DNA from: a virus
Taxonomy: Duplodnaviria; Heunggongvirae; Uroviricota; Caudoviricetes
Strand: one strand, 5' to 3'
IMG/VR virus record: IMGVR_UViG_3300010262_000095
Span: 1 to 4,386 of that record
DNA: 4,386 nt
In this document: positions 1 to 4,386 of the stretch, piece after piece
How the letters are laid out: every line of letters starts with the position of its first letter
Numbering within the stretch: the stretch's first letter is position 1
Position numbers and translations under genes: made by a program
The notes under the pieces: generated by a model
Database searches by the model: none
What the model saw: the letters and a program-made list of their open reading frames with translations, nothing else
What the model was told of the DNA's origin: nothing

Positions 1-156
1 GGGCTTGCAGTAAAAGACTTCGGGTTCGCCGATGACATTGAATTCGCTATCGGTGCGAATGGCTGCGAACTGTGCAGGGCGATCTAACGCGGGGTGCGTG
101 CCAAAGGTTTCGTAATCGTGAAAGAGGAAGGTAGGTTGTTTATCTGTGTCTGTCAT
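1..156 (-). CDS. sbcB: Exodeoxyribonuclease I (SbcB-like), 5'-terminal 52 codons only; gene continues beyond the window start
   Basis: Reverse-complement of 1-156 translates in frame from ATG (154-156) as MTDTDKQPTFLFHDYETFGTHPALDRPAQFAAIRTDSEFNVIGEPEVFYCKP with no stop to the window edge. FLFHDYETFG is the N-terminal DEDDh exonuclease motif of Exo I. Absent from the ORF track because the fragment is short and partial. Confidence 0.7.
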   Translation of the reverse strand, partial: MTDTDKQPTFLFHDYETFGTHPALDRPAQFAAIRTDSEFNVIGEPEVFYCKP

Positions 157-176
157 TGTCTAGCATTGTCCACTGT

Positions 177-188
177 AGTTAATTAACT
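177..188. promoter_or_regulatory. Perfect 12-bp palindrome AGTTAATTAACT in the sbcB/int junction region; candidate protein-binding site (operator or recombination core element)
   Basis: Seen directly: 177-188 equals its own reverse complement. It lies 21 bp from the sbcB-like ATG and within a run of TGTC motifs (147-191). Confidence 0.3.
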
Positions 189-284
189 GTCTGTTATAAC
201 TCGAAAAACAACCATTTTTTCACCTGAGTATGTCTACGAACGTCAAATATAGTTGTTTACTGTGCGCTGTTGTCCATGTGATAT

Positions 285-329
285 TGTGTACCAGATGTGT
301 ACCAAACCATTATTTCTGAGCGTACCAAA
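285..329 (+). repeat. Three direct GTACCA-core repeats (TGTGTACCA at 285-293 and 296-304; GTACCAAA at 299-306 and 322-329) immediately upstream of int; candidate arm-type integrase binding sites or int regulatory sites
   Basis: Seen directly: GTACCA cores at 288-293, 299-304 and 322-327, spaced 11 and 23 bp (about one and two helical turns). The last copy ends 11 bp before the int ATG. Confidence 0.4.
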
Positions 330-337
330 TATTATTT

Positions 338-1516
338 ATGGCTATAAGCGACACAAAACTGCGTACTATTTATGGTAAACCATATTCGGGCCCACAAGAA
401 GTGGCTGATGCCGATGGCCTCAGCGTACGAATTTCACCGAAGGGGGTCATCCAGTTCCAGTACCGCTATCGCTGGCATGGCAAGCCTAATCGACTTGGGC
501 TTGGTCGATACCCATCCCTGTCTTTGAAGGATGCCAGACAGATCACTGCTGACTTGCGAAAGCTCTATTTCTCAGGAACGGATCCACGCACTTATTTTGA
601 AGAGAAGGTGGAGAACTCCATGACGGTCGCCCAGTGTCTCGACTACTGGTTCGACAACTACGTCTCTACAACTCTCAGAGAAAAGACCCAGGCACTTTAC
701 CGATCAACGGTTATGAAGCGCATGCATGACGCCTTTCCTAATCGTCCGGCATCTTCTATCACGGTTAAGCAATGGGTTGACCTGCTTACCGAAGAAGAAA
801 GAGATAATCCACGCCGAGCAAGGCAGGTGCTAAGCCAACTAAGATCAGCAATAAGTTGGTGCATGCGGCGTCAGTTGATAGATAGTTGCGCAATTATGAG
901 CATCCAACCAAGGGACTTCGGCTCCCGCGCTGAGGTAGGGGATCGGGTACTGTCGTATCACGAACTGGCTAAGATTTGGCTTGCTATTGAAAGAAGCCGT
1001 GCGTCTACGTCAAATAAGCTCCTTCATCAGATGCTTATGCTGTGGGGGGCGAGGCTCTCAGAGCTTAGGCTGGCAACAAAGACAGAATTTGACCTGCTGG
1101 ACAACGTATGGACCGTACCGAAAGAGCATAGCAAGATGGGTAATGTTATCCGCCGTCCAATCTTCGAACAAATTAAGCCTTTCCTCGAAAAGGCCATGAC
1201 AACGTACAATGATGTTCTTTTCCCTGGAGAAGACATAAACAAACCGATCAGCATCGCTGCAGCCAACCGATTCGTAAATAGAATAAGGGGAGGGATGGAT
1301 CTAGGTTACTGGCGAACACACGATTTCAGAAGAACGCTTGTTACACGTCTGTCCGAGATGAATGTCGAGCCCCATGTTACTGAGCGAATGCTCGGTCATG
1401 AACTTGGCGGGATAATGTCCGTATACAATAAACACGATTGGATAGAGGCTCAGCGCAAAGCGTATGAGCTTCACGCTGATAAATTGTTCTGGCACATCAG
1501 GAGCATTTCTGATTAA
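338..1516 (+). CDS. int: Site-specific tyrosine recombinase, P4-type phage integrase (392 aa)
   Basis: Long ORF with the first in-frame ATG at 338, preceded by an in-frame stop at 317-319. The N-terminus (LSVRISPKGVIQFQYRYRWHGKPNRLGLGRYPSLSLKDAR) resembles the arm-DNA-binding domain of P4-like integrases. C-terminal catalytic signature present: HDFRRT (1319-1336), GHELGG His (1397-1399), candidate nucleophile Tyr in SVYNKHDW (1424-1426). No clear SD upstream. Confidence 0.9.
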   Translation: MAISDTKLRTIYGKPYSGPQEVADADGLSVRISPKGVIQFQYRYRWHGKPNRLGLGRYPSLSLKDARQITADLRKLYFSGTDPRTYFEEKVENSMTVAQCLDYWFDNYVSTTLREKTQALYRSTVMKRMHDAFPNRPASSITVKQWVDLLTEEERDNPRRARQVLSQLRSAISWCMRRQLIDSCAIMSIQPRDFGSRAEVGDRVLSYHELAKIWLAIERSRASTSNKLLHQMLMLWGARLSELRLATKTEFDLLDNVWTVPKEHSKMGNVIRRPIFEQIKPFLEKAMTTYNDVLFPGEDINKPISIAAANRFVNRIRGGMDLGYWRTHDFRRTLVTRLSEMNVEPHVTERMLGHELGGIMSVYNKHDWIEAQRKAYELHADKLFWHIRSISD

Positions 1517-1688
1517 CGCCACCGTTAAGAATCCACCCTTCAACAGCTTCACGAAGGTATGATTTGGGGTGGGTTCTGACTGGCTTCGGAAATCCATGCC
1601 GTTTGGTATAGTTCCAGATTGTCTGACGTGATGAAACACCGAGCTTGTTCATCACTTCTTTCTCAGGAATCAGGCTGGTATCGGTCAT
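1497..1688 (-). CDS. AlpA/Vis-family helix-turn-helix protein, putative excisionase / recombination directionality factor (63 aa)
   Basis: ATG at 1688-1686 with SD GGAG (1696-1699) 7 nt upstream. Sequence SLIPEKEVMNKLGVSSRQTIWNYTKRHGFPKPVR...YLREAVEGWI fits the AlpA-family pattern. It lies immediately beside int and its 3' end overlaps the int 3' end by 20 bp. Confidence 0.75.
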   Translation of the reverse strand: MTDTSLIPEKEVMNKLGVSSRQTIWNYTKRHGFPKPVRTHPKSYLREAVEGWILNGGVNQKCS

Positions 1689-1702
1689 CTTAATTCTCCA
1701 GG

Positions 1703-1729
1703 CAAAAAGAAACCGCCATCAGGCGGTTT
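1703..1729 (-). terminator. Rho-independent terminator: 8-bp stem (1710-1717 / 1722-1729, 5 GC pairs), 4-nt loop, then a U-tract on the minus-strand transcript (1703-1709); possibly bidirectional
   Basis: Seen directly: AAACCGCC-ATCA-GGCGGTTT. The minus-strand RNA continues CUUUUUG; the plus-strand RNA continues GGUGUUCUUUC. The hairpin contains the stop codon of the 55-aa ORF and lies between that ORF and the excisionase-like gene. Confidence 0.6.
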
Positions 1730-1886
1730 GGTGTTCTTTCAGTTCTTCAATTCGAATATTGGTTACGTCTGCATGCGCTATCTGCGCCCATATCATCCAG
1801 TGGTTATAGCAGTCGTTGATGTCCTCTGCTTCGATAACCCTGTCGAATGGCTCTCCATTCCATTCACCTGTGACTCGGAAGTGCAT
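1719..1886 (-). CDS. Hypothetical small acidic protein (55 aa), not in the supplied ORF track
   Basis: ATG at 1886-1884 immediately preceded by an in-frame TAA. SD GGAG (1894-1897) 7 nt upstream. Translation MHFRVTGEWNGEPFDRVIEAEDINDCYNHWMIWAQIAHADVTNIRIEELKEHQTA (11 acidic, 4 basic residues). The TGA stop (1721-1719) sits in the terminator loop. Same strand as the operon. Confidence 0.55.
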   Translation of the reverse strand: MHFRVTGEWNGEPFDRVIEAEDINDCYNHWMIWAQIAHADVTNIRIEELKEHQTA

Positions 1887-1958
1887 TTATCATCTCCATA
1901 AAACAAAACCCGCCGTAGCGAGTTCAGATAAAAGAAATCCCCGCTATTGCGAGGATTG

Positions 1959-2243
1959 TTATTCATTGCCGATATTCACCTTTATCGCGAACACCTTTAC
2001 CGGTTTATCACCGAAGTGCGGATGTGTGATTGTCTTGATTTCATATCCGTCATACGGAACATCAATTCTGCGGCTGGAATCGTCGCGCTTCGGATATCCC
2101 TTTGTGATAATCAGGCGGTCATACTCCCGGAACATAATTCGCTTATTCCAGTAGTCATTACACAGGCGATACTCTTCCGTTTTCTCTCCACTAATCATGG
2201 CATCGAAGTATTCACCTTTGACGGAAAGTTGCAGGTTAGCCAC
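1959..2243 (-). CDS. ASCH/PUA-like small protein (94 aa); start revised to GTG 2243 instead of TTG 2318
   Basis: GTG at 2243-2241 with AGGAGG (2250-2255) 6 nt upstream; it overlaps the upstream gene's stop by 8 bp. Contains GEKTEEYR (2166-2189), matching the GxKxxExR hallmark of ASCH-type PUA-like domains. The ORF-track start at 2318 is a TTG deep inside the upstream gene without an SD. Confidence 0.6.
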   Translation of the reverse strand: MANLQLSVKGEYFDAMISGEKTEEYRLCNDYWNKRIMFREYDRLIITKGYPKRDDSSRRIDVPYDGYEIKTITHPHFGDKPVKVFAIKVNIGNE

Positions 2244-2454
2244 GGTTAACCTCCTGCGCCGTTTTGATGATTGCTGCCAGACAATTCTTGCAAGGAACAA
2301 GCAGCGCTCCCTGCTCAATGCTCAACAGCGCGTGCTGAGCATCCTGAAACAACCAGTCTGAAAATTGTGGCGCATGTCCGCACCACGTTTCTATTTCATG
2401 CTTTGCAAGTTTAACTCCCTCTCGATAGTCATATTTGATGATGTGCTTGCTCAC
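2236..2454 (-). CDS. Hypothetical 72-aa protein with a possible Cys/His metal-binding arrangement (C25, H27, C55, C58)
   Basis: GTG at 2454-2452 with AGGAGG 7 nt upstream; GTGA overlap with the stop of the preceding gene (2451-2453). Translation MSKHIIKYDYREGVKLAKHEIETWCGHAPQFSDWLFQDAQHALLSIEQGALLVPCKNCLAAIIKTAQEVNRG. No family recognised. Confidence 0.55.
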   Translation of the reverse strand: MSKHIIKYDYREGVKLAKHEIETWCGHAPQFSDWLFQDAQHALLSIEQGALLVPCKNCLAAIIKTAQEVNRG

Positions 2455-2642
2455 GACTTCACCTCCTGTTGAGCAGAAACCTGATTTTTGAGTGATTCAG
2501 AAATATTCCTGCAATACCTAGCGGATTCATCGTCGAAAATGCTTTCGAAATACTCAGCAATCCAGCCGAACACAACAACCTGCTCATTGCTTGGATTTGC
2601 GCTTTGATTGAAGGCGGTTATTAGTGATGCACTCATACTCAC
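2451..2642 (-). CDS. Hypothetical small acidic protein (63 aa; alternative ATG start at 2636)
   Basis: GTG at 2642-2640 overlaps the upstream TGA stop (2639-2641); ATG two codons later at 2636-2634. AGGAGG upstream (4 nt from the GTG, 10 nt from the ATG). 8 acidic and 4 basic residues. No family recognised. Confidence 0.55.
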   Translation of the reverse strand: MSMSASLITAFNQSANPSNEQVVVFGWIAEYFESIFDDESARYCRNISESLKNQVSAQQEVKS

Positions 2643-3319
2643 TTAACCTCCTGTTTTGGTGCTGCTGGAAGCGGCATCCAGTGGGTTATGATTACTTCGC
2701 GAGGATTGCAGTCGTCCTCTACTGGCTGCCACTCCGTCCATCCGTTGGTTTGATAGACAAAGAAATAAGCAGGAATGTAGCCTGGTTCATCTCCTTCAAA
2801 ATATGTTCCCCAGCAAAGATACAAGCAATTGCTATCAGGCATTCGCTCACTACAGCTTATCCAACCATCCGGAATTACCGGAGAGTTGCCACCGGGAATA
2901 TTTTCCGGAATATTTTGTTGTGCGTTTTGTGGTTGTTCGGATTTACCCTGAAGCATAGCGGCACGGCAGGCGTTCCAGCCTCTCACCTCTGCAATAGCAG
3001 CAACAGCATCGACCGCGTACATTTTAAGAGGGTTAGGCATTGGTTTTTCTTCAGGTACTACTGGCACTGGAGGGGCGGCATAAACAGGAATAACGTCCGA
3101 TTGATCTTTATTGCTTTCATCTGTTAAAGCCCAGAATAATTTTCCAGCCGGATGTTTGAAAATATAAGCAACTGGTTCTGCTTCCAGCGATGCCAGCGCC
3201 AACTTGAACGCCTGAAGCTCAATGGCACTGTTGGTATCCAGTCCAAACGGTAATTCATCACGATTGGCTTCGTATTCAGCGATAGTTTGCTTCAGCCATT
3301 CTTTGGTTAGTTCAGCCAT
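2639..3319 (-). CDS. DUF551-domain prophage protein (226 aa from ATG 3319; ORF-track start 3370 judged less likely)
   Basis: C-terminal region DGWISCSERMPDSNC...GWTEWQP...VIITHWMPLPAAPKQ matches the DUF551 signature (WI..ER.P ... THWMPLP.PP) as I recall it. ATG at 3319-3317 lies 4 nt after the upstream stop (3324-3326) with a weak AGGG/AAGGGG SD. ATG 3370 has no SD and would overlap the upstream gene by 47 bp. Confidence 0.65.
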   Translation of the reverse strand: MAELTKEWLKQTIAEYEANRDELPFGLDTNSAIELQAFKLALASLEAEPVAYIFKHPAGKLFWALTDESNKDQSDVIPVYAAPPVPVVPEEKPMPNPLKMYAVDAVAAIAEVRGWNACRAAMLQGKSEQPQNAQQNIPENIPGGNSPVIPDGWISCSERMPDSNCLYLCWGTYFEGDEPGYIPAYFFVYQTNGWTEWQPVEDDCNPREVIITHWMPLPAAPKQEVK

Positions 3320-3323
3320 ATCC

Positions 3324-3776
3324 CTAATTCCCCTTGATGCTGACTTTGACGCCAACCTTGCGAATCTCATCGGCGCATCTGTTCACGATACTCCGGTGAA
3401 ACTCACAAAAAATTTTCGCCGACTGCGGCCCTAATGGGTGAACATTGTGCGCACGCGGCAGTACAACCTCCCGCGCCTCCATGTCAGCAATCCGCTTGTC
3501 TTTGGCTTCCAGCTCATCCAGCAGCGCCAGCACGGTAGCTGGATTGGCTGCGGCGATGAATTCAGCATTGGCCTGCTGTTCCATTTGGAAATCTTCATCG
3601 AAACCGCTTTCAGGATGCGCTCCTTCAATTCTGCAAATGGGAAGATATCCAACAACTTCACGATGAATTAGCGCATCATCAGCATCAAATCTCTCCTCTC
3701 CATATTCGAGCGACCACACACCACTCGTTGCTTTCTCTGCCGCTTCACGCAGTGCCTGATAGTCAATCTTGCTCAC
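3324..3776 (-). CDS. Ea22-like (ead/Ea22 family) prophage protein (150 aa)
   Basis: GTG at 3776-3774 with AAGGAGG 6 nt upstream; GTGA overlap with the upstream stop. N-terminal IDYQALREAAEKATSGVWS and internal FIAAANPATVLALLDELE match motifs I recall from lambdoid ead/Ea22-like proteins. Confidence 0.65.
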   Translation of the reverse strand: MSKIDYQALREAAEKATSGVWSLEYGEERFDADDALIHREVVGYLPICRIEGAHPESGFDEDFQMEQQANAEFIAAANPATVLALLDELEAKDKRIADMEAREVVLPRAHNVHPLGPQSAKIFCEFHRSIVNRCADEIRKVGVKVSIKGN

Positions 3777-4204
3777 TGGTTGCCTCCTTTGCGAAGCTGG
3801 GCAGCAAAGTCACGGATAGTGTCATCAAGGTCTGGGCACAACAGATGGTCAGCAAACATCTCCACGCCCTGCGCCCGTACTTCATCCAGAAAAGCATCGG
3901 TGGCTGGGGTTTCAGTAACATCATCTTCCCATTCGCTAAACTCCTCACGACAAAAGTCATTAAATTCCTTCTCAGATTGCTTAAGCGATGTATTTTCTGC
4001 AGCCATCTTCGCGCATTTAGCCTCAAGGTTATCAATCGTGATTCCAGCAGAACGACACTCCCGCAACGCCGTTTCCAGTTTTGATTCAAGTTCACCGAAC
4101 TTACGGACAAGATATTCAGCGTTTGTTTCGTTAATCTTTAAATCTCGTGGGATGTATTTACCTTTCAGAAAACCATCCATCTCAATTAGTGACATTTGTT
4201 TCAT
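3773..4204 (-). CDS. Coiled-coil prophage protein, possibly the N-terminal partner of an Ea22-like pair (143 aa from ATG 4204; ORF-track GTG start at 4222)
   Basis: ATG at 4204-4202 forms an ATGA overlap with the upstream stop (4201-4203). GTG 4222 has no SD. The central region ([38 protein letters not shown]) looks coiled-coil. The C-terminal [21 protein letters not shown] resembles segments of Ea22-like proteins, from memory. Confidence 0.55.
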
Positions 4205-4383
4205 TTCTTCCCACTCCGCCACATCGCATTCAGATATTTGTTTTGATTTACTGACGGAAAAGAATTTCTCTTAAGCAATTCCTCTCTCGATGGCATTGGC
4301 TTTACGCGTTGGCGAATAATCATTTCTGCCGGAAGAATGCCGGGATTGTATGCAAGTCCTCTCATGGTAAATTCCTCAGTCAT
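4201..4383 (-). CDS. Hypothetical small protein; 5' end uncertain (frame is open to the window edge; candidate starts at ATG 4383 and at SD-supported ATG 4365)
   Basis: Frame is open from 4386 to the TGA at 4203-4201. ATG 4365-4363 is preceded by GAGG 6 nt upstream. Translation from 4365: [54 protein letters not shown]. No family recognised. Confidence 0.4.
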
Positions 4384-4386
4384 TAC

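Follow-up and report, generated by a model that had tools for sequence, protein, structure and literature searches.

The 4,386-bp stretch of viral DNA analyzed here (IMG/VR record IMGVR_UViG_3300010262_000095, positions 1 to 4,386; hereafter, the window) represents the left arm of a prophage of lambdoid/P22-like type that stands beside sbcB in Escherichia coli. Its minus strand carries, at positions 1959 to 2243, the target of this study, the gene of a 94-residue protein read from GTG 2243 (VANLQLSVKGEYFDAMISGEKTEEYRL...). We propose that the family of this protein very probably belongs to the ASCH fold group, since the fold matches and the canonical position of the GxKxxExR motif, taken together with weak sequence matches, converge on this assignment. 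It forms a divergent ASCH clade, carried by phages and outside the current Pfam models, and the identification as such is already known, RefSeq naming the protein "ASCH domain-containing protein." Concerning its function, we tentatively favor, at somewhat less than an even chance, an early-expressed nucleic-acid-binding protein of ASCH fold, the pocket of which would read or process a base.

Predicted fold and ASCH motif

The AlphaFold2 models obtained from 34 and 106 sequences (predicted local distance difference test scores of 84.5 and 89.6) agree in topology, with a strand, a helix, a strand and a helix followed by four strands, i.e., eight secondary-structure elements in 94 residues. In three fold searches, one of them with Foldseek, the top ten matches were all ASCH, EVE or YTH proteins; Table 1 gives the scores of the other two, and Foldseek ranked the same proteins first, with a probability of 0.99 for 3iuw. 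The structure comparison proposed as a check in the original prediction, which had described the target as a stand-alone ASCH/PUA-like protein on the basis of its letters, thus came out on the PUA-like side. The nearest solved structure, 3iuw, is an uncharacterized minimal ASCH protein (E. faecalis NP_814290.1), which we take to be probably a DUF3850 member.

Table 1. Solved structures matched by the predicted model
Entry	Protein	Fold-search score
3iuw	E. faecalis "activating signal cointegrator"	6.6-6.9
2z0t	PH0355	6.2-6.4
9kyf	YqfB	5.8-6.0
1wmm	PH1033 (EVE)	5.4
6yex	VcaM4I (EVE)	5.0-5.3
6k6u	YTHDC2 (YTH)	5.3
3s9x	ASCH, L. crispatus	5.2
1t62	EF3133	5.1
1xne	PF0470, 25-26% identity	5.1-5.3
5guq	ZmASCH	4.9-5.0

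The GEKTEEYR stretch, read previously as the GxKxxExR hallmark of ASCH domains, falls at the canonical structural position (Table 2). Conservation was assessed over 122 representatives with 40 to 60% identity to the query, among which G19 is kept in 93%, K21 in 100%, E24 in 99% and R26 in 98%. Such near-invariance at this level of identity argues that the motif is not a chance occurrence.

Matches to ASCH and DUF3850 (PF12961) models were weak but consistent, and confined to residues 1 to 28. Of the 34 close relatives examined, 19 matched Pfam ASCH (E up to 1), and among the 122 distant representatives (E up to 0.01), eight matched ASCH (best E 1.3e-4) and four DUF3850, the four DUF3850 matches lying below the 22.9-bit gathering threshold and over the N-terminal 25 residues (best E 0.0017). 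The precomputed Pfam assignment is blank for all listed family members and PF04266 for all YqfB homologues. NCBIfam gave no match to the target protein, and its sole match in PHROGs was phrog_625 (E 4e-51), to which no function is assigned.

Family distribution and conserved residues

With sequences clustered at 50% identity, an exhaustive HMMER scan recovered 850 representatives at an E value of 1e-3 or lower, of which 332 reached 1e-10 or lower. The gene is present in 1,559 of 5,426 complete E. coli genomes (29%), with up to five copies per genome, and in 332 of 50,697 phage records; a pattern search with the ITHPHFG stretch recovered 130 genomic relatives. Phage carriers include Stx-converting phages, P22-like phages, ST104, phage 21 and phiV10, as well as virulent Jerseyvirus (Jersey-type) Salmonella phages, an Erwinia Casjensviridae phage and Ralstonia phages. 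Prophages of alpha-, beta- and gamma-proteobacteria carry the family. Achromobacter, Comamonas, Pseudomonas, Paraburkholderia, Brucella and Rhodobacteraceae harbor members on prophages or plasmids, and a contig with the label of a Chloroflexi metagenome-assembled genome carries the gene as well.

Beyond the motif, W32, R35, Y50, D55 and H74 are near-invariant, and the positions conserved at 90 to 100% comprise L4, L6, F13, G19, K21, E24, R26, W32, R35, G49, Y50, P51, G66, H74, V84, A86 and I87. Conserved aromatic residues are found at F13, W32, Y50, W/Y64 and F77. Two stretches are specific to the family, i.e., the G49-Y50-P51 turn and the ITHPHFG loop (Table 2). The family is basic, with a median isoelectric point (pI) of 9.5 and 90 to 95% of the members above 8.

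Longer family members have no recurring N- or C-terminal extension; their extensions are mutually dissimilar and hold no significant Pfam domain, a match to RVT_1 in one of them (E 0.007) being dismissed. The protein is truly stand-alone, with no fused domain, as had been proposed from its letters.

Gene start and reading frame

The mechanical list of open reading frames (ORFs) extends the target gene over positions 1959 to 2318 of the minus strand. The true start is GTG 2243, as the original prediction had supposed, because several observations agree on it: the spacing of the AGGAGG ribosome-binding sequence, the 8-nt overlap with the stop of the upstream gene (Table 2), the N-termini of homologues (MANLQL), and RefSeq, where the identical 285-nt coding sequence (CDS) is annotated as WP_122991675.1. 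Moreover, of two sets of loci that we compared, 80 close viral loci and 80 diverse loci from different species, the close set has GTG at this position in 63 loci and ATG in 17, with GGAGG upstream in all 80. Between the target and five enterobacterial homologues, codon changes at third positions exceed those at first and second positions (e.g., 48 versus 18 and 11). Thus, purifying selection acts on the minus-strand frame, and the gene is none of the plus-strand ORFs that overlap it.

The start/stop junction (GTGGCTAA) suggests that translation of the target is coupled to that of the upstream gene. An xTGGCTAA junction is present in all 80 close loci and the 8-nt overlap in nearly all, the gene directly upstream belonging to at least seven unrelated families. 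The junction looks like a modular exchange boundary of the kind typical of lambdoid accessory regions. A consensus scan of the window detected no minus-strand promoter of the target's own for expression in the lysogen, and an Rfam scan of the window gave no match.

A base-binding pocket as the favored reading

We propose that the target would be a small, self-contained protein built on an ASCH-type PUA-like beta-barrel, produced from one of the cistrons in the early-left accessory operon of its lambdoid/P22-like prophage, and probably coupled to whichever gene stands upstream. Its basic surface would bind nucleic acid, and the putative K21/E24/R26 cleft, lined by F13, W32, R35, Y50, D55, H74 and F77, would take up a base that is exposed or flipped out and, most probably, modified. 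The protein would thereby serve as a dispensable accessory function aiding early infection, and not as a part of integration or excision.

Chemical processing of the base or of an adjacent bond, by analogy with what is reported for the stand-alone EOLA1 and ZmASCH, is a serious though tentative possibility. Binding only, with the ligand masked or sequestered, has a little less in its favor, and some other activity takes the remaining share. Catalysis is placed slightly ahead of pure binding because several polar residues are near-invariant and because the characterized stand-alone ASCH proteins (YqfB, EOLA1 and ZmASCH) are enzymes.

The TRIP4-like clade (human EOLA1, EOLA2 and TRIP4) offers the same K21/E24/R26 triad with identical spacing. 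In this clade, Glu24 is absolutely conserved, and EOLA1/2 have K21 and R26 (bioRxiv 10.64898/2026.08.01.741249). Human EOLA1, which is also a stand-alone ASCH protein and is electropositive around its pocket, reportedly deacetylates free N4-acetylcytidine (ac4C), its R26A variant being inactive (bioRxiv 10.64898/2026.08.01.741249). However, the pocket-facing Ser/Thr 7 that is universal in this clade is not conserved in the target family, where position 7 is Pro in 29%, Ala in 22% and His in 18% of the members (Ser7 in the window protein and Ala in its close homologues), and we therefore count this position against membership of the TRIP4-like clade. The target is also shorter (94 versus ~158 residues).

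DUF3850 (PF12961), with 3iuw, resembles the target in being a minimal stand-alone domain of ~80 residues that is common in phages, but the target matches it below threshold over residues 1 to 28 only, with 15 to 18% identity. DUF3850 domains of phages are often fused to ParB-CTPase folds (PMC12704722), whereas the target family is never fused; DUF3850 itself has no known function.

Several points weigh against the reading that we favor. At the level of the fold, no sequence method reached significance for ASCH. The profile searches proposed in the original prediction did return ASCH and DUF3850 matches, but all of them were below threshold, the Pfam ASCH model (PF04266) scoring 15.1 bits against a gathering threshold of 21.2 and over residues 6 to 28 only. 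Single-sequence and profile searches of the PDB sequences gave chance-level matches only (BirA, xylosidase and eS1), and hhalign of the family alignment (A4) with a low-diversity YqfB alignment gave a probability of 0.8%, with residues 11 to 26 in exact register; hhalign with YqfB as a single sequence was likewise not significant. The YqfB profile is shallow, its homology search having yielded close YqfB relatives only. At the level of function, the window protein is near neutral (pI 7.8), and that the conserved residues form a single pocket is something we infer from sequence. Catalysis is made doubtful by the absence of the YqfB nucleophile Thr24 and acid Glu74 and by the lack of conservation of the Ser/Thr 7 of the TRIP4-like clade. 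Mouse EOLA1 expressed in bacteria is reportedly inactive on free ac4C, as cited in bioRxiv 10.64898/2026.08.01.741249. Finally, we found no published experimental work on any member of the family.

Alternative functions

The best placed of the alternatives, although improbable, is an RNA-directed factor, i.e., a protein binding single-stranded RNA or a weak ribonuclease like ZmASCH that would modulate transcripts of the host or the phage, or tRNA, in the early phase of infection. ZmASCH of Zymomonas mobilis (5guq), a ribonuclease specific for single-stranded RNA, shares the ASCH fold, its cleft is basic, and it binds nucleic acids (PMC5615036), in line with the basic pI of the target family. 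It is nevertheless larger (~143 residues, with extra helices) and only weakly active, and the residues on which its function depends (Tyr47, Lys53 and Ser128) could not be mapped onto the target. Some databases name cluster members "RNA-binding protein," but such names are inherited annotation, and RNA-metabolism genes do not recur nearby.

Less probable again is a counter-defense decoy or eraser. It would bind or hydrolyze a modified nucleotide or base to which PUA-domain sensors of the host respond as an alarm or target, for instance m6-dAMP or a methylated or acylated base, and would thereby blunt type IV restriction or PUA-Cal-HAD-like systems. Many modification-dependent nucleases have a domain of the PUA/ASCH clan as their sensor (PMC12191111; PMC7641849), and the same clan supplies the sensor of PUA-Cal-HAD, which is triggered by m6-dAMP (bioRxiv 10.64898/2026.01.15.699771). 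The gene stands in early accessory clusters of phages and, on a plasmid, among runs of small genes. Moreover, same-strand DNA methyltransferase genes lie within 6 kb of it in at least 17 of the 80 diverse loci (e.g., L089, L082, L162 and L167), with C5 enzymes in 10, N6/N4 enzymes in 4 and a small methyltransferase-like protein in 3; this is a raw count without a background frequency, and we regard the association as suggestive. There is, however, no methyltransferase gene in the window, and the sole PADLOC match (E 0.033) is too weak to count. Our results give no support to the sensing or masking of modified DNA or RNA suggested in the original prediction, nor to a counter-defense role, and the protein carries no effector domain. 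The reported factors against PUA-Cal-HAD are DNA-mimic proteins and not PUA proteins (bioRxiv 10.64898/2026.01.15.699771), and we found no paper tying the family to anti-defense. Neither does the arrangement recall the type IV sensors: the EVE/YTH readers of modified bases in type IV restriction enzymes (VcaM4I, 6yex) are fused to or adjoin nuclease effectors, and EVE domains have a sixth strand and a different pocket, whereas the target is stand-alone with variable neighbors, among which no nuclease family recurs. In its more specific form, the family as a whole would be a phage and plasmid counter-defense factor, a free-standing copy of the host modified-base sensor fold that competes for, sequesters or erases the trigger; this we hold to be still somewhat less probable. 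Its candidate targets would be type IV restriction and m6-dAMP-activated PUA-Cal-HAD.

We give yet less weight to a YqfB-like salvage enzyme, an amidohydrolase that would act on free N4-acetylcytidine or related acylated nucleosides and so supply pyrimidine salvage while the phage grows. E. coli YqfB (N4-acetylcytidine amidohydrolase; 9kyf, 1te7) is likewise a stand-alone protein of ~100 residues, its catalytic residues are Lys21, Thr24, Arg26 and Glu74 (PMC9599836), and G19, K21 and R26 of the target stand in the same register. Deacetylation of ac4C is reported for EOLA1, the residue 24 of which is a Glu. We rejected identity with a YqfB-type amidohydrolase because Glu takes the place of the nucleophile Thr24 in 99% of the family, a helical insert that could carry Glu74 is missing from the model, and the family is basic (median pI 9.5), whereas YqfB homologues have a median pI of 4.7, YqfB proteins being acidic and without nucleic-acid binding (PMC9599836). 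The hhalign probability below 1% and the YqfB already present in E. coli count in the same direction.

As improbable as the salvage enzyme is a small beta-barrel of coincidental likeness that would act purely through protein-protein contacts (e.g., inhibiting a host protein) and keep the motif for structural reasons only, which would fit the lack of any significant sequence-based statistic but not the fact that three independent fold searches placed only ASCH, EVE or YTH proteins among their ten best matches, the motif at its canonical position with K21, E24 and R26 conserved at 98 to 100%, or the independent members that match ASCH and DUF3850 models while other families recur in at most three members.

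Genomic context

The target lies in the early-left accessory operon of the prophage, beside sbcB, in agreement with the prophage accessory operon suggested earlier; the integrase gene is on the opposite strand, and one small gene separates the target from the AlpA/xis-like gene (Table 2). A close relative in strain STB20-1 has the order sbcB, integrase, helix-turn-helix (AlpA/xis-like), small hypothetical genes, "ASCH domain-containing protein," DUF551 and ead/Ea22, followed farther along by anti-RecBCD, ssb, a Rad52-family gene, kil, cIII and the repressor region.

Table 2. Features of the target gene and its surroundings in the window
Feature	Positions	Strand	Remarks
CDS of the 94-residue protein of predicted ASCH fold	1959-2243	-	GTG start 2243-2241, TAA stop 1961-1959
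Shine-Dalgarno AGGAGG	2250-2255	-	6-nt spacer to GTG 2243
Start/stop junction GTGGCTAA	2236-2243	-	target GTG overlaps upstream-gene stop by 8 nt
GEKTEEYR (residues 19-26), GxKxxExR	2166-2189	-	helix 1/strand 2 junction; helix 10-18 and strand 23-27 in the model
G49-Y50-P51, family-specific turn	2091-2099	-	after strand 3; 97-98% in 122 representatives, invariant in alignment A4
ITHPHFG (residues 72-78), family-specific loop	2010-2030	-	H74 90%, H76 65%
Integrase	338-1516	+	ORF list, Pfam/PHROGs matches
AlpA-like	1497-1688	-	ORF list, Pfam/PHROGs matches
phrog_676	1719-1886	-	55-aa gene between target and AlpA/xis-like gene
phrog_4090	2236-2454	-	overlaps target start
phrog_23654	2451-2642	-	ORF list, PHROGs
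DUF551	2639-3370	-	ORF list, Pfam/PHROGs matches
Ead/Ea22	3324-3776	-	ORF list, Pfam/PHROGs matches
Coiled-coil protein	3773-4222	-	ORF list, Pfam/PHROGs matches
Terminator-like hairpin, T-rich tail	1926-1957	-	stem 1936-1957; right after target stop; consensus scan; putative function
Second terminator-like hairpin, T-rich tail	1896-1925	-	stem 1906-1925; precedes next gene (1719-1886); consensus scan

No fixed partner accompanies the gene. The phrog_4090 gene, considered as a conserved partner, was rejected since it accompanies the ASCH gene in only 4 of the 80 close loci, and so was DUF551, found nearby in 75 of the 80 close loci but in only 2 of the 80 diverse ones. Among the diverse loci, besides the methyltransferases, the recurrent neighbors are integrases (12 and 7 loci for the two largest clusters), NinB and antiterminator Q (4 loci each), and RdgC and DUF5131 (3 each), Pfam being scanned for representatives of the recurrent neighbor clusters. 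All neighbor counts are lower bounds, since roughly half of the ASCH ORFs were missed when genes were called in GC-rich loci, antisense ORFs having been taken in their place. This variable company argues that the gene is a mobile early-region cassette, and family members are found among the early genes of temperate phages, virulent phages and plasmids.

In some enterobacterial prophages (e.g., L094 and L098), the ASCH gene stands in the nin region, near NinB and antiterminator Q and away from int/xis; hence, the cassette moves between the two accessory regions. On the 174-kb Stutzerimonas plasmid CP142123.1 (L090), a member lies in a long same-strand run of small genes near genes with GmrSD_N and PAPS_reduct domains. 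Plasmid leading regions are reportedly rich in anti-defense genes, and the layout on this plasmid is reminiscent of them.

Terminator-like sites number 11 in the window, against 4.2 ± 2.2 in shuffled sequences, and these hairpins may partition the early-left operon unless transcription is antiterminated. A third hairpin near the target, bidirectional, lies at positions 1710 to 1729 between the 55-residue gene and the AlpA/xis-like gene. The integrase gene (plus strand) and the AlpA/xis-like gene (minus strand) are convergent, their 3' ends overlapping by 20 nt (1497 to 1516); in lambda, int and xis are transcribed in the same direction. In related genomes, the counterpart of bases 1 to 156 (minus strand) of the window is the 5' end of the exodeoxyribonuclease I gene, sbcB, which places the prophage end and the attachment site within the AT-rich interval 157 to 337. 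The DUF551 ORF as listed begins at 3370, which gives it a 47-nt overlap with the Ead/Ea22 gene; an ATG at 3319-3317 (MAELTKEW...), a few nucleotides past the Ead stop codon, is more plausible as its start.

Significance

As it stands, our finding re-derives an existing database annotation, for a gene that is very common in E. coli and for a family missed by the Pfam models. Its interest would rise only if a counter-defense or modified-base activity were demonstrated. Were the ligand defined, YqfB and EOLA1 would be joined by a third functional type of stand-alone ASCH protein, and a conserved early gene found in medically relevant prophages would be accounted for.
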